Shown here: one piece after another, positions 3,185 through 23,329 of the stretch
How positions within the stretch are numbered: position 1 is the first letter of the stretch
Layout: each line of letters opens with the position of its first letter
NCBI RefSeq assembly: GCF_003233845.1
Contig: NZ_QKRB01000037.1
Coordinates: 83,464 to 107,463 of the forward strand
Reading direction: 5' to 3'
From: Paenibacillus sambharensis
GTDB taxonomy: Bacteria > Bacillota > Bacilli > Paenibacillales > Paenibacillaceae
Length of the DNA: 24,000 bases
Translations under genes and position numbers: made by a program
The notes under the pieces: model-generated
Database searches by the model: none
What the model was told of the DNA's origin: nothing
The model's input: the letters and a program-made list of their open reading frames with translations, nothing else

Positions 3185-4036
<852 letters not shown>

Positions 4037-4068
4037 ACTTGTGCAACGCTTATAGAACTATATTAATA

Positions 4069-4095
4069 GGCATCCGCCCGGATGCCTTTATTTAT
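4069..4095 (+). terminator. Rho-independent terminator
   Basis: GGCATCCG (4069-4076) pairs with CGGATGCC (4079-4086) and is followed by TTTATTTAT. Confidence 0.7.
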
Positions 4096-4142
4096 GTAAT
4101 CTATGTGATTCTATATGCACGCCTGCCCGCTTTGATGCCCGT

Positions 4143-4200
4143 TTGACAAATAGAAAAATCAGCATTACTATGACTATAGTCATAAAATGACCGTGGTCAT
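4143..4200 (+). promoter_or_regulatory. Promoter TTGACA-17-TACTAT with two 14-bp palindromes, a likely TetR operator pair
   Basis: TTGACA 4143-4148 and TACTAT 4166-4171. ATGACTATAGTCAT (4170-4183) and ATGACCGTGGTCAT (4187-4200) share ATGAC/GTCAT arms and sit on and after the -10 box. Confidence 0.6.
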
Positions 4201-4221
4201 ATTGAGGAGGGAGACAAAATA

Positions 4222-4830
4222 ATGCTGAGGGAATCGCGTAAAAAGGAATTAAAGGAACACATTTTTCTACAAGCTCTCCAGCTTTTTTATGATAAAGGGT
4301 ATGAACAGGTTACGGTTCAGGAGATTACAGCCAAGTGCGGCATTGGGAAAGGAACCTTTTTTAATTATTTCGCTAAGAAAGAAGACATACTGCTTTACCT
4401 TGGAGAATCCCAGATCGAGCTGCTGCAGCAGAGCATCGAGAAGCATCGGAATATCGGTCATCCCAAAGAACAAATTATGCACGCGCTGAACGATCTGCTT
4501 CTTCATTTCTCATCCCATAGCGAACTCATGAAGCTGGCTACAATAGAAATCATGAAGTCGGCTTCTCTTGCCGGGAAAGAATCAAAGAGCGTTCAACAAT
4601 TGCATCTGCAGCTGGCATCCATGCTCGACCGAGCCAAACAAGACGGTAAGCTGCACAGCCGCTGGGAAACGGATGTCATCGTCACAACAATTGTCGGTGT
4701 CTATTTCCATACCATTCTGTCATGGGCCCTGCTGGAAGCCCAACATACAACCATAAGCGAGTCATTTCGAAAACAATTGGATGTCGTATGGGAAGGTATT
4801 GATCCGTACATAGGAGGTGGAGATAAGTGA
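4222..4830 (+). CDS. TetR/AcrR family transcriptional regulator, 202 aa
   Basis: Tracked ORF. The N-terminal HTH is YEQVTVQEITAKCGIGKGTFFNYFAKKEDIL. SD GAGGAGGGAG. Confidence 0.85.
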   Translation: MLRESRKKELKEHIFLQALQLFYDKGYEQVTVQEITAKCGIGKGTFFNYFAKKEDILLYLGESQIELLQQSIEKHRNIGHPKEQIMHALNDLLLHFSSHSELMKLATIEIMKSASLAGKESKSVQQLHLQLASMLDRAKQDGKLHSRWETDVIVTTIVGVYFHTILSWALLEAQHTTISESFRKQLDVVWEGIDPYIGGGDK

Positions 4831-5966
4831 TGCCACAGACCATCCTGATTATAGGCGGCGGAATCGCAGGTCTATGCTCCGCGATCACCCTGCAGCAAAT
4901 GGGATTGAAGGTGAAACTATACGAAAAAAATACCGGGCCAGCGGTATCTGGTGCGGGTATCATTATCGCTCCGAATGCTTTGCAGGCGCTACAGCCATAC
5001 CGCATTGCCGACGAGATCATTCGTCAAGGTAATCCAGGCGACGGATTCCATCTGTTATCGGATCGGGGACGGCCTATTTCAAGACTTACAGTCCCTTCTG
5101 ATTATGGCAGCCTATATTCCATCCATCGCAAGGATCTGCATCGTATTCTCTTATCTGCGCTCGCTCCCGGTACGTTAGAATGGGGAAAATCTTGCTCGCG
5201 TCTTGAACACAAGGATAATCACGTTCGGGTTGCGTTCAGCGACGGCAGTCATGCGGTCGCTGACCTGGTTGTCGCCGCGGATGGCATCCACTCTAAAGTA
5301 CGCAAACAGCTGTTTCCAAAAGATACGTATCGCTATGCCGGCTATACCTGCTGGCGTGGTGTTGTTCCGGCTGACGTCCTTCCAGGCCTCTCTAACCGGT
5401 TTATCGAAACATGGGGAACGAAAGGCCGTTTCGGCATTGTCCCGCTGCCAAACAAGCAGGTGTATTGGTATGCGCTTATCAATGCCCGCCAAAACGATCC
5501 CCGTATCGACAATTATTCCACGAAGGATCTTCACCGCCTGTTCCAGAACTATCATGATCCCATACCCACCCTTTTGCTCAGAGCGGCATCCCATGACATG
5601 ATCCACCGTGATATCGTGGATATTACACCGATGGAACGCTTTTACTCCAATCGGGTTGTTTTTATCGGCGATGCTGCGCATGCCATTACCCCTAATATGG
5701 GGCAGGGAGCCTGCCAAGCGATTGAGGATGCGTCTGTTTTAGCCGACTGCCTTCGCATACAGCGTAATTACCAGGAAGCGTTCGCAGATTACGATGCCAG
5801 ACGAAGGAAGAGAATCAAACAAATTGCTGATCAATCTTGGAAGATTGGAAAAGTGGCACAATCGGAGAGCTTCCTATTCACCACTATCCGAAATCACCTC
5901 ATGAAGCATGCCCCTAAATGGATCTCTCGCAGCCAGGCACAGCGCTTGTACCAGTTTCAGCTCTAG
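4830..5966 (+). CDS. FAD-dependent monooxygenase (UbiH / salicylate hydroxylase-like), about 378 aa
   Basis: Tracked ORF 4827..5966. ILIIGGGIAGLCSAITLQQMGLKVKLYEK is the FAD GxGxxG fold. DGIHSKVR and GDAAHAITPNMGQGACQAIEDA are flavin monooxygenase motifs. The start (GTG 4827 or ATG 4830) overlaps the TetR stop, which suggests an operon. Confidence 0.85.
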   Translation: MPQTILIIGGGIAGLCSAITLQQMGLKVKLYEKNTGPAVSGAGIIIAPNALQALQPYRIADEIIRQGNPGDGFHLLSDRGRPISRLTVPSDYGSLYSIHRKDLHRILLSALAPGTLEWGKSCSRLEHKDNHVRVAFSDGSHAVADLVVAADGIHSKVRKQLFPKDTYRYAGYTCWRGVVPADVLPGLSNRFIETWGTKGRFGIVPLPNKQVYWYALINARQNDPRIDNYSTKDLHRLFQNYHDPIPTLLLRAASHDMIHRDIVDITPMERFYSNRVVFIGDAAHAITPNMGQGACQAIEDASVLADCLRIQRNYQEAFADYDARRRKRIKQIADQSWKIGKVAQSESFLFTTIRNHLMKHAPKWISRSQAQRLYQFQL

Positions 5967-5975
5967 GGCTGAAGC

Positions 5976-6012
5976 GCCATCCCGTCCGGAATGGCTGGGA
6001 TGGCTTTAATTG
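5976..6012 (+). terminator. Probable terminator between convergent genes
   Basis: GCCATCCC (5976-5983) pairs with GGGATGGC (5997-6004) across a 13-nt loop and is followed by TTTAATT. Confidence 0.5.
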
Positions 6013-6924: not shown

Positions 6925-7010
6925 CTTAATCCCCCCTCTCAAGTTTAAGTATAGGCGAGGCAGCAAACAGCTTCGCAACAATTTGTGCCCTAAAAAGTTG
7001 CGATAGCAAG

Positions 7011-7068
7011 AACTTGCCTTTATTTATGATAAGTTTCTTCACGCTGTCTTTATCGGCAAGTTTTACGG
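7011..7068 (+). repeat. Dispersed intergenic repeat, copy C
   Basis: AACTTGCC-TT-TATTTATGATAAGTTTCTTCACGCTGTCTTTATCGGCAAGTTTTACGG. By hand alignment it matches copy A at 35 of 48 positions. The terminal AACTTGCC and GGCAAGTT are inverted. Confidence 0.6.
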
Positions 7069-7118: not shown

Positions 7119-7170
7119 AGGGCTTAGGCAGACGTATATAGCCACTCTGCTTAAGCCCTTTTCCTTTTTA
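7119..7170 (-). terminator. Rho-independent terminator of the yjdF-like gene (hairpin usable on both strands)
   Basis: GGGCTTAGGCAGA (7120-7132) pairs with TCTGCTTAAGCCC (7146-7158), 12 of 13 positions. T-runs flank it on both strands. Confidence 0.6.
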
Positions 7171-7201
7171 TCAGCACCAAATTGAATCAAGAGAGATTGG
7201 C

Positions 7202-7618
7202 CTATCTTCCCCGGCGCTTTAGCTTCGCTTTCTGTATCCGGAGCTGATATTTCCGTTCCTTCTCTTCCTCCAACTGCTGCCGACTGAACTCTTTCCGCTG
7301 TTTTTTCCGGCATTCCATCTCGAGTTTTATGGCCTCCTGGGCCCGAGTTGAAACCCCTCGCTGAGCAAGTTCCTTCGCTGCCTGGCGCGCCAGTCTTTTT
7401 GGATTGCCCCGATTCAACCGACGATGTCCGCCTTCCGAAGTTTGAGTGGCTCGTTCAATTAAGGGCATCATGATCTTCTGAACGAAGTACATGACCTCGG
7501 CATCCTTCGGCTCACTGCCAAATATGTGCCGTGACACCTTAAGCCTACTATTCTCCTCCTGCTCTAGGACACCCACCCAATACTTCATGCCCTCATCAAA
7601 AAAAACGGTAAGCTTCAT
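7202..7618 (-). CDS. yjdF: YjdF family protein (DUF2992), 138 aa
   Basis: Tracked ORF 7202..7681, trimmed to the ATG at 7618 (SD GAGGGGGAG). MKLTVFFDEGMKYWVGVLEQEENSRLKVSRHIFGSEPKDAEVMYFV plus a basic K/R/E-rich tail matches the B. subtilis YjdF pattern as I recall it. Confidence 0.75.
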   Translation of the reverse strand: MKLTVFFDEGMKYWVGVLEQEENSRLKVSRHIFGSEPKDAEVMYFVQKIMMPLIERATQTSEGGHRRLNRGNPKRLARQAAKELAQRGVSTRAQEAIKLEMECRKKQRKEFSRQQLEEEKERKYQLRIQKAKLKRRGR

Positions 7619-7621
7619 ACT

Positions 7622-7740
7622 TGCTCCCCCTCTAGCGTTACTTGGAGTGAAGGACATCCCGAGGGGGAAGGTTACTGACACAAGAAACGACAGCTTCCCT
7701 GTGCGCCCGGACTACCGACCGAGCAGTGTTTTTACACTCC
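7622..7740 (-). ncRNA. Candidate yjdF-type (azaaromatic) riboswitch in the 5' leader
   Basis: A leader of about 120 nt lies between the promoter and the yjdF-like ATG. GGAGUG pairs with CACUCC as a closing helix, and GGGAAG pairs with CUUCCC as an internal helix. A CCUUCCCCCUC tract is complementary to the SD GAGGGGGAG. This genomic context is the defining one for the yjdF motif. No covariance-model search was run. Confidence 0.5.
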
Positions 7741-7746
7741 ATCTTC

Positions 7747-7776
7747 ATTATAAAAGAGACTAGTTGAAAGCTTCAA
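7747..7776 (-). promoter_or_regulatory. Promoter for the yjdF leader
   Basis: On the minus strand: TTGAAG (7776..7771), 18 nt, TATAAT (7752..7747). Confidence 0.45.
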
Positions 7777-7870
7777 TTCTTCGGCTTTGTCTTACATATA
7801 ATTTTCCTTCCAACACACCATACAGCGCCTTCATCATTCCTTTGATACCCTACTTATGATAAGGTTTAGT

Positions 7871-7900
7871 GTGACATTCATACTATTACCACAATATACT
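7871..7900 (+). promoter_or_regulatory. Possible promoter of the NBD-LytTR regulator gene
   Basis: GTGACA (7871-7876), 18 nt, TATACT (7895-7900). This is the best sigma-A-like match in an AT-rich 300-bp gap, so it is a weak call. Confidence 0.3.
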
Positions 7901-7983
7901 GGTTGTTTATTTTCGGAAATGAAGGATTTAAAAAGATATTTTTTATATAAGAGTTAATTATCTTAGAGTGTGAGGTAGAAACG

Positions 7984-9120
7984 ATGTCATTACTTACGAT
8001 CAGTCAATTGGTAAAGAGAAAAGGAAACACATTATTACTTCCTGAGATTAATCTTGAGATTGGAAGTGGTCAATGTGTTGTGATCCAATGTAACAACGAG
8101 TTAGGGAATTTACTTATCCAGCTGCTTCTCGGTGCCGTTCCTGCTTCAAGCGGACAAGTACTATTCGAGGCGGCTGAATTGCGGCATGAATTCAAACAAA
8201 AGGCACATAAAATAGGCATATCCCTCTTAAACGATGGAATCTATAATGGCTTAAAAGTGAAGGACTATCTTACTTTTTATAAAAATCTGTATGGGACAAC
8301 AGATACGATTGATATAGTCTTGCGAAGAATAGGGCTGCTCGATCATCGAAACAGCAGGCTCTCTGCGTTAAGCTTCTCTGAACAGAAACGTTTGCAGCTA
8401 GGAAGAGCCATTATACATAATCCTTCATTCCTTATATTAGAAGAACCTGAACAGAATGTAGATATTGAGAGCCATATCATTATTCGGGCATTAATCTCTG
8501 AGCTTCGTAATGAAGGAAAGGCCATTCTGATCACAACCTCCTATCTGGCTGATGCCATTTCTATTACCAATGAGGTATACAGATTAAATGAACACGAACT
8601 CAAAAAGATAGAAATTATCGACCAGCCTGAAACGGATAACCAGACTGACAACCAACTTGTTGCCGCTGCTATTGAACAGCCTGACGATGGTGATAATCAT
8701 CTGCTTGTAACCGATCAACAGATGCCACAATCTGAAGCTGCAATTCAGCCAGCTTCGCCGGTCCAAATTGAAACTCAACCCGTTCGTGTAGAAAAAATTC
8801 CTGCTAAGGTGGAGGATAAGATCATCTTATTCGACCCTACAGAAATCAATTTCATTGAAAGCAGCGATGGAGTCTCCATGCTGCATGTGAAGGGAGAAAC
8901 ATTCCCCTGCACGTTTACTTTAAACGAGCTCGAGCAAAAACTAAAAGCATTCGGCTTTTTCCGCTGCCATCGCTCCTACATCGTCAACTTACAGAAAGTA
9001 CGTGAAGTCATTACTTGGACACGAAACAGCTTCAGCCTTATTTTAGATGATAGCAAGAAAAGCTCGATACCACTTTCCAAAGGCAAGCTTGACGAGTTAA
9101 AGACCATATTAGGCATCTAA
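7984..9120 (+). CDS. Fusion protein: degenerate ABC-ATPase (NBD-like) domain, acidic/Q-rich linker, LytTR DNA-binding domain; 378 aa
   Basis: Tracked ORF, SD GAGGT. The N-terminal 205 aa or so align motif by motif with an ABC NBD, but the catalytic residues are replaced (see findings). The C-terminal 100 aa (8818-9117), KIILFDPTEINFIESSDGVSMLHVKGETF...FFRCHRSYIVNLQKVREV...IPLSKGKLDELK, is a clear LytTR domain. Confidence 0.85.
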   Translation: MSLLTISQLVKRKGNTLLLPEINLEIGSGQCVVIQCNNELGNLLIQLLLGAVPASSGQVLFEAAELRHEFKQKAHKIGISLLNDGIYNGLKVKDYLTFYKNLYGTTDTIDIVLRRIGLLDHRNSRLSALSFSEQKRLQLGRAIIHNPSFLILEEPEQNVDIESHIIIRALISELRNEGKAILITTSYLADAISITNEVYRLNEHELKKIEIIDQPETDNQTDNQLVAAAIEQPDDGDNHLLVTDQQMPQSEAAIQPASPVQIETQPVRVEKIPAKVEDKIILFDPTEINFIESSDGVSMLHVKGETFPCTFTLNELEQKLKAFGFFRCHRSYIVNLQKVREVITWTRNSFSLILDDSKKSSIPLSKGKLDELKTILGI

Positions 9121-9148
9121 AGCTCCAAATTGTCGTACAAAACGCTGT

Positions 9149-9211
9149 ATCATTCACCCTTAAAATTGCATCATTCAACCCTTTATTTACTCTGTTTATC
9201 CTTGAAATACT
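9149..9211 (+). promoter_or_regulatory. LytTR-box-like direct repeats plus an extended -10 box upstream of the ABC operon
   Basis: ATCATTCACCCTT (9149-9161) and ATCATTCAACCCTT (9170-9183) start 21 bp apart. TGaAATACT (9203-9211) is a possible extended -10 box 22 bp after repeat 2. No good -35 box is present, which fits an activator-dependent promoter. Confidence 0.5.
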
Positions 9212-9281
9212 GCGCGGTTACGGGATTTCCTTTAATGTTGGTGCTGCAAGACGAGAACAACATCTAAAGGAGCCAGACCAA

Positions 9282-10130
9282 ATGAAATATCAGATTGAAG
9301 TGAACCAATTAACGAAAGCATTTGCTAATAAGCCGGCTCTAAATGGAGTCAGCTTTCAGATTAAGCGTGGTGAAATTTTTGGGTTTCTTGGTCCAAGCGG
9401 TTCTGGTAAAACAACCATGGTAAAAATATTAACCGCTCAACTTTTACACACATCCGGTTCGGTTAAAGTGTTCGGAAACGACGTACGTAATCTGCAGAAT
9501 CCCGAACAAATGAAACGGATTGGTATTCTTACCGATAACAGCGGTTTGTACGATCGACTTACGATCTATGATAACTTAGAGCTGTTTTGCAAGTTATATA
9601 ATGTGGATGTGAAGCGCATTGAAGAAGTGCTCGAAGAGGTAAATCTCCTTCAAGATAAGAAAACAGCTGTAAAGCAGCTATCCAAAGGCATGAAGCAAAG
9701 AGTGACATTGGCACGGGCCATTTTACATAAGCCTGAGCTTCTGTTCCTGGACGAACCGACCTCAGCTCTTGACCCTACCAATAAACAGCAAATTCATACG
9801 GTCTTACGGAAACTGAATGAGGCGGGAACTACAATCTTTCTAAGCACTCATGACATGCAGGAAGCTGAGGATCTCTGCAATCAGGTTGCATTTCTTCATA
9901 ATGGAACAATTGTAGAGCTGGATACACCTCAAAGCCTGCGAGTGAAACACGGTGACTCAACCATTAATATTCGATTAAAGAACGGTACCTCTGTAACCGT
10001 AGGTCTGGATGAGGCCGGGTCTAACGCTATCAGAGATTATATGAATAATGGAGAGCTGCTTACGATTCATTCTAATGAACCAACTTTAGGGGATATATTC
10101 ATCAAACTAACTGGGAGGGCGCTCCAATGA
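9282..10130 (+). CDS. ABC transporter ATP-binding protein (canonical NBD, DrrA/CcmA-like), 282 aa
   Basis: Tracked ORF, SD AAAGGAG. Walker A GPSGSGKTT, signature LSKGMKQR, Walker B LLFLDEPTSALD, H-loop LSTHDM. Confidence 0.9.
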   Translation: MKYQIEVNQLTKAFANKPALNGVSFQIKRGEIFGFLGPSGSGKTTMVKILTAQLLHTSGSVKVFGNDVRNLQNPEQMKRIGILTDNSGLYDRLTIYDNLELFCKLYNVDVKRIEEVLEEVNLLQDKKTAVKQLSKGMKQRVTLARAILHKPELLFLDEPTSALDPTNKQQIHTVLRKLNEAGTTIFLSTHDMQEAEDLCNQVAFLHNGTIVELDTPQSLRVKHGDSTINIRLKNGTSVTVGLDEAGSNAIRDYMNNGELLTIHSNEPTLGDIFIKLTGRALQ

Positions 10131-10837
10131 CATTTTCGATGAGAAGAATACGAGCGATTATTACGAAGGATTGGAAAGACTTATTAAAAAACTCATACAT
10201 ATTAGTTTCCATACTCCTGCCATTAGGCTTTGCAGCCATGCTATCTCGTATGAGTACGGATGACAGCAGCATGCTGAGTATGCCGATTAACCTTGCATTA
10301 GTTATGACGGGCGCATTTGTTCAAGCATCGATGATGGCAGAAGAAAAAGAAAGAAGCACCTTGCGTGTCCTATTACTCTCTCCTGCTTCAACACTGGAAA
10401 TTATGATTGGCAAAAGCGTTTTATCTGCGATTATTACGTTAATTGTCGTCATTGGTTCTATCTTAATCAGCGGAATTAACATTCCCGAACTATTTTACTT
10501 TTCTATTATGATTTTATTATCACTGATCATATTCATATCGTTAGGAACCATTATTGGACTCATCTCACGTACGGTCATGGAAACCTCCATTGTAGGATTG
10601 CCTATTCTCATCATCTTTACCTATGGATCGATGTTAAGCTCTATGTTTAATAGCCCCATTATCGCAGAGAGTATTTCTTATTTACCTACAGAAAACTTCT
10701 CATCCGCACTTGTGAGTTTACAAGGCAGCGGCGGTTTTGCAGAAATTAAGTGGAATCTCCTAAATATGCTCCTATGGGCGATTGGCTCGGTAATCCTGGC
10801 CAAATTCATCTACGGAAAGCGTCGCTTAGACAAGTAA
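10127..10837 (+). CDS. ABC-2 type transporter permease, 236 aa
   Basis: Tracked ORF. The ATGA start/stop overlap with the ATPase gene and SD GGGAGGG indicate coupling. It has multiple hydrophobic helices and the ABC-2 motif EEKERSTLRVLLLSP. Confidence 0.8.
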   Translation: MTFSMRRIRAIITKDWKDLLKNSYILVSILLPLGFAAMLSRMSTDDSSMLSMPINLALVMTGAFVQASMMAEEKERSTLRVLLLSPASTLEIMIGKSVLSAIITLIVVIGSILISGINIPELFYFSIMILLSLIIFISLGTIIGLISRTVMETSIVGLPILIIFTYGSMLSSMFNSPIIAESISYLPTENFSSALVSLQGSGGFAEIKWNLLNMLLWAIGSVILAKFIYGKRRLDK

Positions 10838-10867
10838 CTATAAATAGTGGAATGCGAGGTAACACTT

Positions 10868-10960
10868 ATGAACTCTAAAACAACCAAATTTATTTTTCAA
10901 ATGTTAATGGCAGCTGTTATTACTATAGTTATTGTTACGGTTATCAAAAACTTCGCTTAA
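10868..10960 (+). CDS. Small hydrophobic single-TM peptide (30 aa), untracked sORF
   Basis: ATG at 10868 follows GCGAGGT (SD-like, about 7 nt upstream), 30 nt after the permease stop. The translation is MNSKTTKFIFQMLMAAVITIVIVTVIKNFA, with stop TAA at 10958-10960. The operon terminator follows, so the sORF lies inside the transcription unit. Confidence 0.4.
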   Translation: MNSKTTKFIFQMLMAAVITIVIVTVIKNFA

Positions 10961-10985
10961 TTACTTAAAGACAAGGAATGTAAAA

Positions 10986-11015
10986 AGCCCTTCGAGATTG
11001 AAGGGCTTTCTGATC
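10986..11015 (+). terminator. Rho-independent terminator of the ABC operon
   Basis: AGCCCTTC (10986-10993) pairs with GAAGGGCT (11000-11007) across a 6-nt loop and is followed by TTTCTGAT. Confidence 0.6.
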
Positions 11016-11029
11016 TAATAATTTCGCTC

Positions 11030-11104
11030 TATTTGTGTTGCGGCTCTCCGCGTTGTCTGTAACGGCAAGTTTTTAGGCCATCCTTTTGCTGGTTGGCCTT
11101 TCGT
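11030..11104 (+). repeat. Dispersed intergenic repeat, copy A (box plus hairpin)
   Basis: TATTTGTGTTGCGGCTCTCCGCGTTGTCTGTAACGGCAAGTTTTTAGG, followed by the hairpin AGGCCA...TGGCCT (11075-11099). Confidence 0.6.
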
Positions 11105-11322: not shown

Positions 11323-11398
11323 AGCTTGTGATACGGTTATCCGCGCTGTCTGTAACGACAAGTTATAGGGCCATCCTTTGCGGGATGGCCCTTTCTTT
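11323..11398 (+). repeat. Dispersed intergenic repeat, copy B (box plus hairpin)
   Basis: AGCTTGTGATACGGTTATCCGCGCTGTCTGTAACGACAAGTTATAGGG is about 80% identical to copy A by hand alignment. It is followed by the hairpin GGGCCATCC/GGATGGCCC (11368-11391) and TTTCTTT. Confidence 0.6.
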
Positions 11399-17707: not shown

Positions 17708-17930
17708 AGGGATCTCCTCCTTGGTAAAGGTGACAGCCTTACAAAACGGTTTCCAGCGCTAAACTTCATTTCCATCGTACCACGCTTTGTTTATTTGGTA
17801 AACAAAGTATGCGTGCTAGAGGCGAGCTCATGATATCGACTCTCGGCACCCATCATATAGCGCTTGGAATACTTCTTTGTGACGTTCTCCAAACGTATTA
17901 CGCTCATGACTATCCACCCTTACTTCGTTT

Positions 17931-18797
17931 TTATTCTACTGGCGGCAGCGAAGTTCGCAGCAGGGTCTCCATGTCGGCAATCGGTACGGCCAAGCCAGCC
18001 CTTATCATTTGGTCTTGATGCTGGACATCGGCAATAGCGAATACAACGGCGATGGCTTTGCCACGCTTGTTAATGACGGGAGAACCGCTATTGCCGCTAT
18101 AGATCGGCGCATCAAGAGCCATGACCGGCGTCTGACGGCCTTGGATCGGGACCAAGCCGATAATAGCGCCTTCAATGACGATTTGCGTGAAATGAAGCGG
18201 ATTGCCAATCACGTAGATTTGTTCATCCGGCTCCCACTGCATGTTGTCTCGCTCGACTTCAATAAACGGCAGCCGCTCATCCCCGATGTCCGCCTTCAGT
18301 ATGGCGATATCCAGATCGGGATCACTGCCCGACAGCTCCGCTTTATAACTCTGACTTTGTTCCGGGAATTTTACTATAATATAGCCGCTATCCTCGATGA
18401 CGTGATAGTTGGTCACAATGTAGCCGCCGTTAATGTGGAACCCGGTGCCCTTGCCGTTGTCCGTGCTGACTGTAACAACCGCTTCTTTATAGCTTTGGAT
18501 TTCAGCTTGTCTGGATAATTTCTTCGACCCGAACAAGAGGGGGAGCGTCTTCATGTTGTAGATTTGCGGCCAGAAGGCCACTATATTTCCGACTAGAGCG
18601 GCTACGAGCAGGGATATGATCGTCCTTTTGATCCACTTCCGTCGGTTGGCCGATGAACCCCCGTCGTCGTCCTCCTCTTCCGACTCAAAGTCCCACTCCT
18701 CGTCCGCATACGGGTGGTCATTCTCATGTTCTTGATTATCTTCGGAATTAGATAGAGAATTCTCTTTGTTTCGACCCGGATCATTTTCCATGCGCAT
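17931..18797 (-). CDS. Membrane-anchored trypsin-like (S1 family) serine protease without PDZ, 288 aa
   Basis: Tracked ORF, SD GGAGGGA. It has an acidic N-terminal tail and one TM segment (IISLLVAALVGNIVAFW). Catalytic triad contexts are TNYHV, DLDIAILK and GNSGSPV. Confidence 0.8.
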   Translation of the reverse strand: MRMENDPGRNKENSLSNSEDNQEHENDHPYADEEWDFESEEEDDDGGSSANRRKWIKRTIISLLVAALVGNIVAFWPQIYNMKTLPLLFGSKKLSRQAEIQSYKEAVVTVSTDNGKGTGFHINGGYIVTNYHVIEDSGYIIVKFPEQSQSYKAELSGSDPDLDIAILKADIGDERLPFIEVERDNMQWEPDEQIYVIGNPLHFTQIVIEGAIIGLVPIQGRQTPVMALDAPIYSGNSGSPVINKRGKAIAVVFAIADVQHQDQMIRAGLAVPIADMETLLRTSLPPVE

Positions 18798-18832
18798 CCC
18801 TCCATACCCGCCGTAATTCTGCTTGTCCCGTT

Positions 18833-18841
18833 ATTGTATCA
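18833..18841 (-). promoter_or_regulatory. Extended -10 element (TGaTACAAT) upstream of the protease gene
   Basis: The minus strand reads AATGATACAAT about 36 nt upstream of the ATG. The -35 region is weak. Confidence 0.35.
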
Positions 18842-19151
18842 TTAGACTGCCTATAATTGGGGAAAATGGCGGCAACGTCCTGTTTCGCTTGGAATACATT
18901 ATTCGTTCAACGGGGGATTCGGACAAACCACGTTTCGACGTTACTATTTTTCCATCATCAGCATGTTTTAATGCTGGCTGACTCCACTTATAGGGTGTCG
19001 CCAGTTAGAGATTCTAGGTCGTTTTTAAGCCGATGTTTTAATGGGTTCTAGATCAATGGTCTTTTGGCTGTATGCCGACTTGACCATTTATCGTTATAAT
19101 GAAGGAACCGATTCACGAGCGGCCAAGCTCAAGAAAGGAATAGGTTCCATC

Positions 19152-20336
19152 ATGACAATAATGGATTCGAATTCACCAATCGGGCTGAGCGTTGCCGAGT
19201 GGCAGGATCTAATCGCCACCTGCGCCCGGAAAGCGGCGGACACCCCGTACGAAATAAATTATGGCACCGAGGTCCGCTCCATGGTGCGCCCCTTCATGTC
19301 GGAGTTCACACCCGAGGAAGCCTGGCTGTTCGAGCTGAACGTCGGCCTGTTCCTGCTCCGCAAGCAATCGACCGGCCGCCACTTGGGCTACTTCGCCCAG
19401 ATGGCGGCATCCGAGACGCTGCATGCCATCGAGAGTCACATCCATAACGACTTGCCGCCGGAGATCGCGGTCAAGCAGCAGGGGCGGCTGCTGGAGACGG
19501 CTGCATATATTCGTGATACGGCAACCGCGAATGCATGGTCCCCACCAGCCTATCTGGATATCTACGTGGAGCTGTGGCAGATCCTGGTTTCATCCGCTGC
19601 GGACAGCCCTCGTCTCCTCAAGGAGGAGCTGGCGCATCTATCCCAGGGACCCGGCATGGAAAACAAGCTCTTCCCGCTCGTCGCCCTAGCCTGGATGTAT
19701 TTCTGGCTGGGTGAGGATCAAGAGGCTTGGCGGCTGCTGGATTCTGCTGGGCGGCATGGGCTAAAGCCCGGGCAGGTATTTCGCTTCCTGCGCCAGCTGG
19801 AGGAGAATGACGAATGGACCCGGCTTGAAGCCTGGCTGAGCCATTGCTCGAACGAGCAAATTGGGCGCAGTCCCGGCAGCCTAGGTGAGTATGGCCGCTA
19901 TTGGGATGCCGTCGTCAAGCAACTGCCGGAGGCCGAGGAACGAATGTGGATCACGATTACGAGCCTGCCTCCCTACTGCAGCAGCTTGTACGAGGAGAAA
20001 CTAATGCGCTATGGCTGTTGGAGGCAGTGGATCGATTACCAGCTTAGCCTCGGCAGCGATCCGCTCGACTTTCGAGCAAAGGATCTGCAGCCCATCGAGA
20101 AGGAGGCGCCGGAAACGCTGCTGCCTTTTTATCACCAAGGCGTCGAGAAATACGTGTTGTTAAAAAACCGCGACGGCTACAAGCGGGCGATCAAGCTGCT
20201 CAAACGTCTGGCCAAGCTGTATAAGAAGCTGAAGCGCGAGCAGCGGTGGGAGGCATACATCGAGACATTCGCCAGCCGGCATAGCCGATTGCGAGCCCTC
20301 CAGGAGGAGCTGCGGAGAGGAGGACTAATTCCATGA
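19152..20336 (+). CDS. Alpha-helical hypothetical protein translationally coupled to the SNF2 helicase (occupies the YwqB-like position; no SWIM motif seen), about 394 aa
   Basis: Tracked ORF 19041..20336. The start is uncertain (ATG 19152 or 19161; AAAGGAA lies 12 nt upstream). Its stop overlaps the helicase ATG (ATGA at 20333-20336). The C-terminal KRAIKLLKRLAKLYKKLKREQRWEAYIETF is helical. High-GC codon usage matches the helicase gene. Confidence 0.6.
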   Translation: MTIMDSNSPIGLSVAEWQDLIATCARKAADTPYEINYGTEVRSMVRPFMSEFTPEEAWLFELNVGLFLLRKQSTGRHLGYFAQMAASETLHAIESHIHNDLPPEIAVKQQGRLLETAAYIRDTATANAWSPPAYLDIYVELWQILVSSAADSPRLLKEELAHLSQGPGMENKLFPLVALAWMYFWLGEDQEAWRLLDSAGRHGLKPGQVFRFLRQLEENDEWTRLEAWLSHCSNEQIGRSPGSLGEYGRYWDAVVKQLPEAEERMWITITSLPPYCSSLYEEKLMRYGCWRQWIDYQLSLGSDPLDFRAKDLQPIEKEAPETLLPFYHQGVEKYVLLKNRDGYKRAIKLLKRLAKLYKKLKREQRWEAYIETFASRHSRLRALQEELRRGGLIP

Positions 20337-23329
20337 CGAAGACGACTGCTTATAACCTGGATACCACCGCGGTTCGAATGGTGCTGACGTCGCATGGTGA
20401 CGCGTTGTTCTTCGCGGACCCGAATTCGCTGCGGGAATGGACCGGACTTCAATTGAAGCATCGCCTGTTCGCCTGGCACGAACCGTCCTTCTATGGCACC
20501 GAGCTGGAGCTCGTCAAAGTCGGGGAGCTCGAGGCCGTCGTGCTGCCCGCCGCAGAGGTCATCCCCTTCTTTGCATCGGGACCTCTACTGGCGCATATGG
20601 AGTGGAAGTGGGAAGACGATGCCGCGCGCTTGGCCGCATTAGCGCCGCTCTTGGGTGAGTGCCTGGAGAAAGGGCTGTACGCACCCGACCTTGCGGCTTA
20701 CCGCAGAGGCTCCCTGCGCTGGAATTGGGATGCGGCGGCGGTCTCCGCGACCTTCGGACAGGCGCGCCGCAACGAACTGGACCTGGAGCGCGGCGGCTGG
20801 AGCGATGAGGCGCGCGACGGGCTAATGGCGGCCTTCTCGGCGGCCGTAACGAGCCGCTTCTATGGTACGGAGTCGGACGAAGCGGATCTGCGCCGGGAAT
20901 TCCCGGCTCTGTTCGCGCGCGAGAACTCAGCGGCCGCGACGGCGGGACTCGACAACGAGACCTGGCTTGTGCAGATCGGCTGGAAAGCGGATGTCGCGCC
21001 GTTCCGCCCCCTGCTGCAGCTAATGGAGCCGTGGGAGGGCGACGAGCACTCCCGCTGGCGGCTGCGGCTCGTGCTGCAGGACAAGAGCGATCCGGCTAAG
21101 CTTCGAACAGTACGGCTCGGCGACGACGGCTCGGTGGCAGGCAAGTGGCCGGACGCATGGGCGGACGCTATTCGGAGCCGCTCGGACGGTTGGCTGCAGC
21201 GGCTGCGGGCCAGCCTTCCGCGCGATCGGCTGTCGCGCGGCGAGGACGTACTCGGCAAGCCGCTTGACGACGAGGCGGCCTGGCGCTTCCTGAACGAGGA
21301 CAGCCGCCGGCTGCTCGAAGCCGGATGGCAGGTCCTGCTGCCCGCATGGTGGGAAGCCGCTAGCCGCAAGAAGCCGCGGCTGCGCGCAGCGGTGCAGTCG
21401 GAGGACGAATCCAAGAAACGGGGCGGCGGCAAGTCTTTGTTCGGTCTGGATGCGATTCTGAGCTTCAACTGGCGCATCTCCATCGGCGACGCCGACCTGA
21501 ACGAGGAGGAGTTCGACGAGCTGCTGGCTCGAGGGGAGCGTCTCGTAAAGTTCCGGGACCGCTGGATCGTGCTCGATCCGGCGCTGATCGCCCAGATCCG
21601 CCGCATGATGGAAGGCATGGACAAGAGCCAGGGATTAAGCTTCCAGGATGTGCTGCAATTGCATCTGCTCTCTCAGGGCGAGGTGGATGGCGGTGCAACA
21701 GACGCCAGTGCAGAGACTCACGGGGCCGATTCCGCCCGCGTTGAGCTCGAAGTCGAACTCAATGCGCATTTGACCGGGCTGTTCGCCAAGATTAATCAAC
21801 AGAGCGAATGGCCTAGGCTCGATCCGCCCGCCGGTCTGCGTGCCGAGCTGCGCAGCTACCAGCAGGATGGATTCGCCTGGCTGGCCTTTCTCCGCCGCTT
21901 CGGGCTCGGGGCCTGTCTCGCGGACGACATGGGACTCGGCAAGACGGTCCAGTTGATTGCCTACCTGTTGCACGCCAAGGAGCAGGCGGACGATGGGCTC
22001 CGGCTCCCTTCGCTGATCGTCTGCCCTACGTCCGTACTCGGCAACTGGCAGAAGGAGATTTCCCGCTTCGCTCCATCGCTCAAGGTGGCCATGCATTACG
22101 GCTCCGGGCGTAAGAGCGGCGACGCGTTCCGGAACGAGGCACGCAGCGTTGACGTCGTGCTGACCTCCTATGCCACCGCCTCGCTCGATCAGGAAACGCT
22201 GGCCGCTTTCCAATGGGGAGCCGTCTGTTTGGACGAAGCCCAGAATATCAAGAACGCCGGGACCAGACAGGCCGCCGCGGTCAAGAGCTTTCCCGCGCTT
22301 CATCGCATTGCGCTTACCGGGACACCGATCGAGAATCGGCTGGCGGAGCTATGGTCGATCTACGATTTTACCGTGCCCACTTACCTCGGGTCCGCCAAGG
22401 CGTTCCAGGACCGCTTCGCAGCGCCGATCGAGCGCGAACAGGACGGGCGTCGCACGGCTGAGCTAAAGCGGCTGGTAAAACCGTTCATGCTGCGGCGCAA
22501 GAAGAAGGATCCCGCCATCCAGCTCGACCTGCCGGACAAGAACGAGATGAAGACGTATGTTCCGCTTACCTCCGAGCAAGCTGCCTTGTACGACAATTGC
22601 GTCAAGGAGCTGCTCGAGAAGCTGAAGAAGCTCGACGGTATCCAGCGCAAAGGCGCCATTCTCGGAGCGCTGACACGTCTCAAGCAGGCATGTAACCATC
22701 CGGCTTTGCTGGATGAGGATACGGGAACGGAGCTGGAGGATGGCCCTCTACACACGGAGGCGATCGTCGCCCGCTCCTCCAAGCTCGAGAGGCTGCTGGC
22801 AATGGTCAAGGAGCTGCGCGAGGCGGACGAGCGCTGCCTCATCTTCACGCAATACATTGGCATGGGCAAAATGATTCAGGATGTCCTGCAGCGCGAGCTG
22901 GGCGAGCCCGTACTGTACCTGAACGGCAGCACGCCGAAGACGCAGCGGGACCGGATGGTCGAACGGTTTCAGTCCCGCGACCTTCCGGCATCCGAGCAGC
23001 CGAACGTGTTTATCCTTTCCCTCAAGGCAGGAGGCGTCGGGCTTAACTTGACCGCGGCGAACCACGTATTCCACTTCGACCGCTGGTGGAACCCGGCCGT
23101 CGAGAACCAGGCGACCGACCGCGCCTACCGGATGGGCCAGACACGCGACGTGCAGGTGCATAAATTCATCTCGCTCGGCACTCTCGAGGAGCGCATCGAC
23201 GAGATGCTGGAGAACAAGCAGCAGCTAAGCGACAACGTGATCTCCAGCTCAGAGAGCTGGATTACCGAGCTATCGACGGATGCGCTGCGGGAGTTGTTCT
23301 CGCTTCGGCGGGACTGGTCGCGCGATTAA
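20333..23329 (+). CDS. SNF2/RAD54 family DEAD-like helicase (YwqA-like), 998 aa
   Basis: Tracked ORF, SD GAGAGGAGGA. LADDMGLGKT (motif I), LDEAQNIKN (motif II), LTGTPIENRL, LKAGGVGLNLT, WWNPAVENQATDRAYRMGQ (motif VI). The N-terminal 500 aa or so resemble the SNF2-associated domain of bacterial homologs. Confidence 0.9.
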   Translation: MTKTTAYNLDTTAVRMVLTSHGDALFFADPNSLREWTGLQLKHRLFAWHEPSFYGTELELVKVGELEAVVLPAAEVIPFFASGPLLAHMEWKWEDDAARLAALAPLLGECLEKGLYAPDLAAYRRGSLRWNWDAAAVSATFGQARRNELDLERGGWSDEARDGLMAAFSAAVTSRFYGTESDEADLRREFPALFARENSAAATAGLDNETWLVQIGWKADVAPFRPLLQLMEPWEGDEHSRWRLRLVLQDKSDPAKLRTVRLGDDGSVAGKWPDAWADAIRSRSDGWLQRLRASLPRDRLSRGEDVLGKPLDDEAAWRFLNEDSRRLLEAGWQVLLPAWWEAASRKKPRLRAAVQSEDESKKRGGGKSLFGLDAILSFNWRISIGDADLNEEEFDELLARGERLVKFRDRWIVLDPALIAQIRRMMEGMDKSQGLSFQDVLQLHLLSQGEVDGGATDASAETHGADSARVELEVELNAHLTGLFAKINQQSEWPRLDPPAGLRAELRSYQQDGFAWLAFLRRFGLGACLADDMGLGKTVQLIAYLLHAKEQADDGLRLPSLIVCPTSVLGNWQKEISRFAPSLKVAMHYGSGRKSGDAFRNEARSVDVVLTSYATASLDQETLAAFQWGAVCLDEAQNIKNAGTRQAAAVKSFPALHRIALTGTPIENRLAELWSIYDFTVPTYLGSAKAFQDRFAAPIEREQDGRRTAELKRLVKPFMLRRKKKDPAIQLDLPDKNEMKTYVPLTSEQAALYDNCVKELLEKLKKLDGIQRKGAILGALTRLKQACNHPALLDEDTGTELEDGPLHTEAIVARSSKLERLLAMVKELREADERCLIFTQYIGMGKMIQDVLQRELGEPVLYLNGSTPKTQRDRMVERFQSRDLPASEQPNVFILSLKAGGVGLNLTAANHVFHFDRWWNPAVENQATDRAYRMGQTRDVQVHKFISLGTLEERIDEMLENKQQLSDNVISSSESWITELSTDALRELFSLRRDWSRD

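Follow-up and report, generated by a model that had tools for sequence, protein, structure and literature searches.

How could a bacterial cell match the level of an ATP-binding cassette (ABC) exporter to the need for it without a sensor kinase? The question is raised by a cassette in a 24,000-nucleotide (nt) stretch of the Paenibacillus sambharensis genome (NCBI RefSeq assembly GCF_003233845.1, contig NZ_QKRB01000037.1, positions 83,464 to 107,463 of the forward strand), which is referred to here as the window. The cassette is AT-rich, lies on the + strand, and contains a fusion regulator gene, an ABC ATPase gene, an overlapping ABC-2 permease gene, a small open reading frame (ORF) for a membrane peptide, and then a single hairpin. 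In the fusion regulator, an ABC nucleotide-binding domain (NBD) that appears to be catalytically dead is joined to a LytTR DNA-binding domain. A first-pass annotation of the sequence had proposed this four-gene anatomy with a pseudo-NBD-LytTR regulator, and the ORFs, the Pfam domains, and the dead motifs agree with it. The best explanation for the cassette, to which about an even chance is given, is a self-contained, kinase-free exporter module in which the LytTR domain activates the transporter operon and the dead NBD docks on the permease as a sensor.

A LytTR regulator with a predicted dead NBD

The fusion regulator gene (7984-9120; coordinates are those of the window, and features are on the + strand unless stated otherwise) encodes 378 amino acids (aa). 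Its product is 100% identical to an NCBI protein named 'transcriptional regulator [Paenibacillus sambharensis]'. Pfam recognizes ABC_tran at aa 21-155 (E 2e-10) and LytTR (PF04397) at aa 278-376 (E 1.5e-26, 92.9 bits against a cut-off of 22.6). No receiver domain was matched by Pfam in the fusion, so the protein is not a response regulator of the LytR/AgrA type. An AlphaFold2 model built from 67 sequences divides the protein into three parts: the pseudo-NBD at aa 1-215 (7984-8628; predicted local distance difference test score, pLDDT, >90), a disordered acidic, Gln- and Pro-rich linker at aa 216-268 (8629-8787; pLDDT <50), and the LytTR DNA-binding domain at aa 269-378 (8788-9117; pLDDT ~90). 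The length of this disordered linker is variable, from 15 to 110 aa. The modelled NBD superposes on LptB, TM_1403, and NosF with a root-mean-square deviation of 2.2-2.6 A over ~212-218 columns. In the model, the NBD fold, comprising a RecA-like core and a helical subdomain, is complete.

What remains of the ATPase in this fold? At the Walker A position the fusion reads IQCNNELGN, not GxxGxGK[ST]. Its signature is LSFSEQ (canonical LSGGQ), its Walker B is LILEEP, and the H-loop His is missing. Walker A and the H-loop His are lost in 81 of 81 family members, which include 80 relatives from 80 species, and the former P-loop varies from one member to another (IQCN, IHSS, IITD, IKMT). Because Walker A and the H-loop His are gone and the signature is non-canonical, the fusion NBD reads as a pseudo-ATPase and not as a working NBD. 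In other words, judged by its motifs, the domain is catalytically dead.

Deeper branches bear on the origin of the dead NBD. P0143, P0221, P0231, P0238, and P0244 retain GxxGSGK[ST] and LLLDEP, and the H-loop His is already gone from them. The presence of Walker A without the H-loop His in deep branches points to a stepwise decay from an ATP-binding ancestor, and the sequences suggest that the dead NBD arose by progressive loss of nucleotide binding from ATP-binding NBD-LytTR ancestors. The distant NBD-LytTR relatives (P0143, P0182, P0195, P0221, P0231, P0238, and P0244) have a canonical Walker A, LLLDEP in most cases, and an H-loop His in none; they are probably ATP-binding and non-hydrolysing. 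Their loci (L087-L093) contain either an ATPase gene together with an ABC-2 permease gene or a permease gene alone.

The nearest solved sequence relatives of the fusion NBD are those of ABCA3/ABCA4/ABCA1, LptB, and NosF, which are NBDs that pair with ABC-2 or type V-like membrane domains. Solved structures were found for ordinary NBDs only and none for the fusion. A literature search found no published study of an ABC-LytTR fusion; the architecture may have been catalogued earlier. The regulator gene has a candidate sigma-A promoter of its own, GTGACA-18-TATACT (7871-7900), with 10 of 12 matches in a consensus scan, which is a pattern match only.

The partner ATPase and permease

The second gene of the cassette encodes a DrrA-like ABC ATPase of 282 aa (9282-10130; Pfam ABC_tran E 4.6e-35, with the DrrA assignment from NCBIfam) behind the ribosome-binding site AAAGGAG (9266-9272). 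NCBIfam places both this ATPase and the fusion NBD nearest to the DrrA/CcmA/GldA group. The motifs of the partner ATPase are canonical, with GPSGSGKT as Walker A, LSKGMxQR as signature, LLFLDEPTSALD as Walker B, and TTH as H-loop, and 72 orthologues preserve them. In 71 of 72 sequences Asp takes the place of the Q-loop Gln (LTDNSGLY), which is unusual for an NBD. The protein also resembles lantibiotic-protection ATPases in a match that stays below threshold.

The permease (10127-10837) is a 236-aa protein of the ABC-2 type with six transmembrane segments (TM), matched above threshold by Pfam ABC2_membrane, ABC2_membrane_3, and ABC2_membrane_2; the loop after TM2 is AEEKERSTLRVLL. Its start codon overlaps the stop codon of the ATPase gene (ATGA, 10127-10130), the coupling that the first-pass annotation had described. 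By profile, the ATPase and the permease form an ABC-2 (type V-like) exporter.

Conservation of the module and its variants

The fusion family appears to be widespread but unstudied. About 120 clusters at 50% identity match the fusion at E<=1e-30, and they are spread over the Bacillales and some Clostridia. Sampling one genome per species gave 80 loci, mostly from Bacillaceae, Paenibacillaceae, and Planococcaceae, with a few from Clostridia. Linkage of fusion homologues to ABC-2 transporters, whose absence would have refuted the first-pass hypothesis by its own criterion, was found in nearly all of this sample, and the hypothesis is not refuted by it. The order fusion, ATPase, permease on one strand is present in 71 of 80 loci, and the permease is kept in at least 78 of 80 (77 by tBLASTn, plus L057 by inspection). 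Seventy-two of the 80 loci have the ATPase gene. In the 71 loci, a gap of 110-290 nt follows the fusion gene, the ATPase is 48-68% identical, and the permease gene starts 0-15 nt after the ATPase gene, except for 196 nt in L080, where the ATPase match is split. In L002 (Chengkuizengella marina, 7128-9726) the gap between the fusion and ATPase genes is ~2.6 kb, against 110-290 nt elsewhere. The deep-branch loci of P0143, P0231, and P0238 have the same gene order.

Does anything else belong to the module? When the flanking ORFs of the 80 loci were clustered, no further recurrent neighbour family emerged, and neither a kinase nor an OmpR-type regulator. A conserved kinase, peptidase, or bacteriocin gene as an additional partner was rejected, the largest neighbour cluster being unrelated ABC ATPases in 17 loci at no fixed position.

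More informative are loci with fewer genes. In four loci from Geomicrobium, Shouchella, and a Cytobacillus (L062, L063, L065, and L077), the permease gene follows the fusion gene by 11-30 nt and no ATPase gene is present. The repeat triplet and the promoter described below then follow the permease gene and precede the gene of another exporter, Sm_multidrug_ex (PF06695, 'small multidrug export'). Since the permease is in the same unit as the fusion in these loci, it appears to be part of the sensing unit and not the output. P0221 likewise has the fusion and then a permease only, and this permease-only locus favours a contact between the dead NBD and the permease. The two-gene variant spans 5959-8348 in L062 and 5926-8355 in L077, and L057 belongs with these variant loci. 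In L071 (6900-7180) and in L073 the ATPase gene is cut to N- and C-terminal remnants (…EPSLGDIFIKMTGSEL), and operator, promoter, and permease remain.

The predicted operator and promoter of the transporter operon

The gap between the fusion gene and the ATPase gene contains a triplet of 12-bp direct repeats that recur every 21 bp: GTATCATTCACC (9147-9158), GCATCATTCAAC (9168-9179), and ACTCTGTTTATC (9189-9200). The first-pass annotation had noticed LytTR-type repeats at 9149-9211, and this finding is borne out with a start at 9147. Known LytTR sites consist of 9-11-nt direct repeats separated by 11-13-nt spacers (PMC4847170). The geometry of the window repeats meets this rule, so that by sequence they form a predicted operator. 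They are the best-scoring pair of the 24 kb on either strand. The family consensus is GCTCCATTCACC-N9-ACTCCTTTCACC, often with a third copy upstream, and a homologous pair or triplet stands at the equivalent site in 75 of 75 intergenic regions (from 72 of the 80 loci, the window, and three close relatives), as scored with a matrix trained on the same data. This circular first statistic was replaced by a half-split test in which the matrix was trained on odd-numbered loci only, and the best pair spaced by 20-22 bp was sought on both strands of each whole 7-24-kb locus. Of 40 held-out loci, 30, among them the window, had their top-ranked pair in the fusion-ATPase gap, a target of ~150 nt. The failures were the most divergent subgroups, which carry the variant box CTACAnTTCAsC.

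A promoter was predicted from conservation in 50 loci anchored on the proximal repeat. A conserved TG occurs at +11/+12 after that repeat (0.90 and 0.92), and a conserved TAnnnT occurs 17 nt downstream, at +33 to +38, with T, A, and T at +33, +34, and +38 reaching 0.88, 0.94, and 0.98. In the window, the inferred core promoter (9210-9238) would consist of a weak -35, CTGCGC (9210-9215), a 17-nt spacer, and the -10 TAATGT (9233-9238). The proximal repeat ends 9 bp 5' of the weak -35. A sigma-A promoter with a weak -35 is thus predicted ahead of the ATPase gene, with a start near 9245. Given this predicted start, the repeats occupy about -98 to -45, a layout that is typical of LytTR activators. 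The operator-promoter layout is conserved across families of Bacillales.

Does the regulator also control its own gene? Ahead of the regulator genes, the median operator score equals the shuffled null, and only 1 of ~75 loci scores above the 99% null level. Autoregulation was therefore rejected, and the regulator is apparently not autoregulated.

A proposed mechanism and its alternatives

Sequence and comparison show a module of two predicted transcription units. The first is a separately promoted gene for a one-component LytTR regulator with a complete but dead NBD at its N-terminus. The second encodes the canonical ATPase and the ABC-2 permease, to which this clade adds a 30-aa membrane peptide. 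In the first step, which is likely, the LytTR domain would bind the repeats spaced by 21 bp and activate the transporter operon. Activation is proposed from the position of the sites, about -98 to -45, and from the weakness of the -35. In the second step, which is moderately likely, the dead NBD would dock on the ABC-2 permease via the conserved coupling-helix groove, and would there compete with the real ATPase or sit beside it. How much regulator is free to act on DNA would then depend on the state or occupancy of the transporter. The result would be a need-based feedback like that of MalK-MalT or BceAB-BceS, except that one polypeptide would sense, transmit, and bind DNA. In the simplest working model, the regulator would be sequestered on the NBD seat of the permease or compete for it, the disordered linker of ~50 aa would serve as a tether, and free regulator would activate the operon. 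A more specific version of this model, held with slightly less than even confidence, is that the dead NBD is a pseudo-subunit of the permease that turns occupancy or cycling into promoter activation via the tethered LytTR domain, which would make the fusion a kinase-free flux sensor in one polypeptide.

Why should a dead NBD dock on a permease? In LptB, the coupling helices of the membrane subunits bind in a groove formed by F90, L93, and R150 (PMC5082905). The residues of the fusion that align with these three are Y87, L90, and R141, and conservation at their positions reaches 77, 78, and 67 of 81 family members. At the positions of the Walker A Lys and the H-loop His there is no conservation in the same 81 sequences. 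No NBD positions of the fusion are better conserved than those of the coupling-helix groove. Together with the loci that keep only the permease, this pattern leads to the inference that the dead NBD docks on the permease.

Several observations weigh against this mechanism. NBDs in general conserve the groove residues (an aromatic-x-R-L after the Q-loop and an Arg after the signature), which serve the fold too, and this leaves their retention suggestive. The loss of the ATPase by internal deletion in L071 and L073, and the finding of no ATPase or permease match beside the fusion in L059, indicate that the module can decay. Alternatively, the fusion might be an ordinary cytoplasmic one-component regulator whose dead NBD is only a ligand-binding or dimerisation domain that never contacts the transporter. 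Such a domain would respond to a small molecule or just keep two LytTR domains joined. This is considered unlikely. The synteny and the operator are explained equally well by a linkage between a regulator and its target, and the retention of Walker A and Walker B in deep branches means that the ancestral domain may have been an ATP-dependent dimeriser. However, the variability of the former nucleotide pocket speaks against a conserved ligand site there, and the most conserved surface is the groove that binds membrane subunits. Furthermore, the two-gene variants transcribe the permease with the regulator and not from the regulated promoter, which is hard to square with the permease as a mere output.

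The conservation of residues at the NBD dimer interface opens another alternative. Signature Ser132, Glu133, the Glu at the Walker B position, and D-loop Asp160 are kept in 74, 57, 70, and 70 of 81 members, and an NBD:NBD contact would explain the retention of Ser132, the Walker B-position Glu, and Asp160 no less well than a contact with the permease. The dead NBD would then pair head-to-tail with the real ATPase, whose gene accompanies the fusion in most loci. It would either read the nucleotide state of this ATPase or whether the ATPase is free or engaged, or it would inhibit the pump as a pseudo-subunit and double as a transcription factor. Yet the two-gene variants and P0221 keep a permease without an adjacent ATPase, and with Walker A gone and the signature non-canonical, both composite ATP sites of such a sandwich would be incomplete. 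This pairing is judged a decidedly improbable explanation. A doubt of a different kind concerns the sign of regulation. A TATAAT-like run directly 3' of the proximal repeat allows an alternative promoter with overlapping sites, that is, repression. Its -10 would be AATACT (9206-9211) preceded by TG, the start would lie near 9218, and repeats at -50 to -18 would occlude RNA polymerase until a signal frees the regulator from the DNA. The family conserves this hexamer at +6 to +11 past the proximal repeat, as a perfect TATAAT in many loci, and there is a precedent in CoxC, an MHYT-LytTR protein that is a repressor (PMC11347149). The downstream TAnnnT is nevertheless better conserved (A2 0.94 and T6 0.98, against 0.58 and 0.90) and has a TG-containing -35 at exactly 17 bp, and the spacer between the repeats lacks a -35-like sequence. 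The repressor geometry is thus less likely than the activator geometry, and a repressing regulator is regarded as doubtful.

Comparison with known systems

In E. coli, MalK, a functional transporter ATPase, sequesters the transcription activator MalT, a second protein that is bound via the regulatory domain of MalK. In both MalK-MalT and the proposed model, ABC transport activity sets the availability of an activator for the same regulon without phosphorylation. Here, in contrast, a single chain carries both the NBD-like module and the DNA-binding domain, and its NBD appears dead. In BceAB-BceRS flux sensing and in LnrLMN-LnrJK of B. subtilis, a resistance transporter also acts as the sensor, so that expression is matched to need; both systems rely on a histidine kinase and a response regulator. 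BceB is a 10-TM permease of the FtsX type with a large outer domain, whereas the permease here is a 6-TM ABC-2 protein of 236 aa and no kinase or OmpR-type regulator was found among the scanned window ORFs or recurs at the 80 loci, so that the likeness to BceAB-BceRS is in logic only. Degenerate NBDs of heterodimeric ABC transporters have likewise lost catalytic residues and kept their fold and contacts. They retain Walker A, bind ATP at one degenerate site, and have no DNA-binding domain; in the fusion, none of Walker A, the H-loop, and the signature is canonical.

AgrA and YpdB share with the fusion the DNA-binding fold and direct repeats of ~10 nt with a 21-bp period (PMC4847170). The YpdB operator is GGCATTTCAT-N11-GGCATTTCAT (PMC4847170), and the operator core of the module, CATTCA/TTTCA, resembles the YpdB box. 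Unlike AgrA and YpdB, the module regulator has neither a receiver domain nor a cognate kinase, and its input domain is an ABC NBD.

A further comparison is with LytTR regulatory systems such as HdrRM and BrsRM of Streptococcus mutans and the ABC transporter-linked SMU_433/434, SMU_1070c/1069c, and lmo0984-0987 (PMC6193735). In these systems a LytTR regulator without receiver domain or kinase is controlled by a membrane protein, and several of them are co-transcribed with ABC transporter genes (PMC6193735). Their regulators are small and lack an ABC domain, and a small membrane inhibitor (DUF3021/DUF2154) is encoded downstream in the same autoregulated operon (PMC6193735). The present module differs from them in the dead NBD on the regulator, in an ABC-2 permease as the presumed partner, and in having no operator 5' of the regulator gene. 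Nor does a dedicated small inhibitor follow the regulator gene, the next gene being that of the ATPase behind its own operator-promoter. The two-gene variants (fusion and permease) resemble the HdrRM/BrsRM layout, but their membrane partner is an ABC-2 permease.

How exporter level is matched to need is understood in few systems (MalK-MalT, BceAB-BceRS, and the streptococcal LytTR systems), all of which have separate sensor and regulator proteins. If the docking of the dead NBD on the permease is true, a transporter subunit would itself be a transcription factor. A three-gene, genetically tractable module with a defined predicted operator would be a test bed for ABC transporter signalling through NBD seats, and it also bears on what selection maintains a pseudo-ATPase. 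In addition, the analysis gives a predicted function and a target site to >100 protein clusters annotated only as 'LytTR family transcriptional regulator', some of which are on mobilisable plasmids and one beside a lantibiotic cluster.

The small membrane peptide and the terminator-like hairpin

Behind the permease gene, a small ORF (10868-10960) encodes a predicted single-pass membrane peptide of 30 aa, MNSKTTKFIFQMLMAAVITIVIVTVIKNFA, supported by conservation of its frame. Its start is probably the ATG at 10868 behind the ribosome-binding site GAGG (10856-10859), not the listed GTG at 10847. The frame, the ribosome-binding site, and the stop are kept in L081, L082, and the Cohnella locus L083. 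Between the window and L082, the small ORF shows 19 nt differences, with 5, 0, and 13 at codon positions 1, 2, and 3, and this bias indicates that the ORF is a translated gene. A hydrophobic small ORF of any kind lies downstream in 13 of 77 distant loci, and a comparable peptide in only ~4-5 of 77 (L032, L034, L042, and L044). A micropeptide as the fourth component of the whole family was therefore rejected, since it is conserved only in the close Paenibacillus/Cohnella clade. The first-pass annotation was thus right about the presence of a trailing membrane small ORF, which is conserved in the clade, but its start has to be moved and it is not a feature of the family. The peptide is most simply seen, from its distribution, as a clade-specific addition that would be an accessory membrane subunit.

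A terminator-like hairpin with an 11-bp stem and a 4-nt loop (10984-11009; dG -15.8 kcal/mol, z -3.86) closes the cassette and corresponds to the terminator annotated before at 10986-11015. A consensus scan skipped it because its T-tract is weak (TTCTGAT). The same hairpin is present in L081 and L082, and a different hairpin stands in the same place in L083.

Composition and history of the cassette

The GC content of the cassette is 0.398, against 0.512 in the remainder of the window. At third codon positions it is 0.40-0.44 in the three long cassette genes, 0.29 in the small ORF, and 0.54-0.65 in the flanking genes, in keeping with the earlier description of the cassette as AT-rich and compositionally foreign. 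The SNF2 region reaches 0.71 in 400-nt windows, close to the ~72% counted by hand in one line of the SNF2 gene. Further AT-rich patches with a GC content of 0.34-0.41 occur at 1000-2400, around an NmrA-like/Rrf2 gene pair, and at 4000-4400, which is the gap 5' of a TetR gene plus the start of that gene. The cassette is thus not the sole low-GC segment of a heterogeneous window.

Was the cassette acquired recently? The block 7818-11046 is common to the window and the relative L081 at 94.6% nt identity, the fusion proteins being 98% identical, and the genes on either side differ. Since the cassette is shared and its flanks are replaced, it forms a stable part of a variable region. A recent insertion between flanking repeats is not supported by the same comparison. 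Cassette GC equals flank GC in L082 (0.36) and in L083 (0.46), and copies of the module are found on mobilisable Priestia plasmids. The low GC content is best read as the trace of an older transfer from a lower-GC Paenibacillaceae lineage. A match to a B. thuringiensis 'plasmid' looks chromosomal (nuo, murA, spoIID, spoIIID) and was not used as evidence of mobility.

The synteny between the window and L081 is a mosaic in which only 1-180, 5843-5976, 7818-11046, and 17869-20913 are in common, at 89-95% identity. Between these blocks, other genes replace TetR/FAD monooxygenase, AraC-GyrI, NmrA/TetR, MmyB-like/FMN reductase/SDR, and GH43 genes. The replaced pairs of regulator and oxidoreductase genes mark a hot spot of gene turnover.

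On the Priestia megaterium plasmid pBMV_2 (L084, 1-6855), the three-gene module lies ~2.6 kb from a LanM synthetase gene and two genes for lantibiotic precursors of the mersacidin family. This proximity is a single case that may hint at an immunity role, and the lantibiotic-cluster link does not recur in the neighbour ORF clustering of the 80 loci. In the window itself, a Pfam scan of 18 ORFs (~1-18.8 kb) found no histidine kinase, peptide-processing, or bacteriocin gene, as the first-pass annotation had stated for the neighbourhood.

Features flanking the cassette

To the left of the cassette, an azaaromatic (yjdF) riboswitch aptamer (7634-7745, - strand; 85.7 bits, E 1.7e-16) lies 5' of a DUF2992 gene (listed as 7202-7681, - strand). 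The true start of this gene is probably the ATG of MKLTVFFDE near 7618, because the listed GTG at 7681 falls within the aptamer. A divergent promoter-like site is present at 7776-7747, near the riboswitch.

To the right, a dispersed repeat occurs twice, and a convergent NmrA-like gene is also present. The right-flank copy (11017-11102, no strand assigned) is outside the module and marks its right edge, and homology with L081 stops within it, at 11046. The repeat search (families D1 and D2) placed further copies at 11326-11395 and 7008-7064; the repeat at the right end had been annotated, and the third copy, at 7008-7064, had gone unreported. The repeat has no Rfam match. The three copies are 57-86 nt long and 72-77% identical, and they bracket a 4-kb segment with the DUF2992 gene and the cassette. 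Both right-hand copies contain a GC-rich terminator-like hairpin, that at 11367-11392 having 11 pairs, and a repetitive extragenic palindrome (REP)-like element, a miniature inverted-repeat transposable element (MITE), or a terminator module are candidates for the nature of the repeat.

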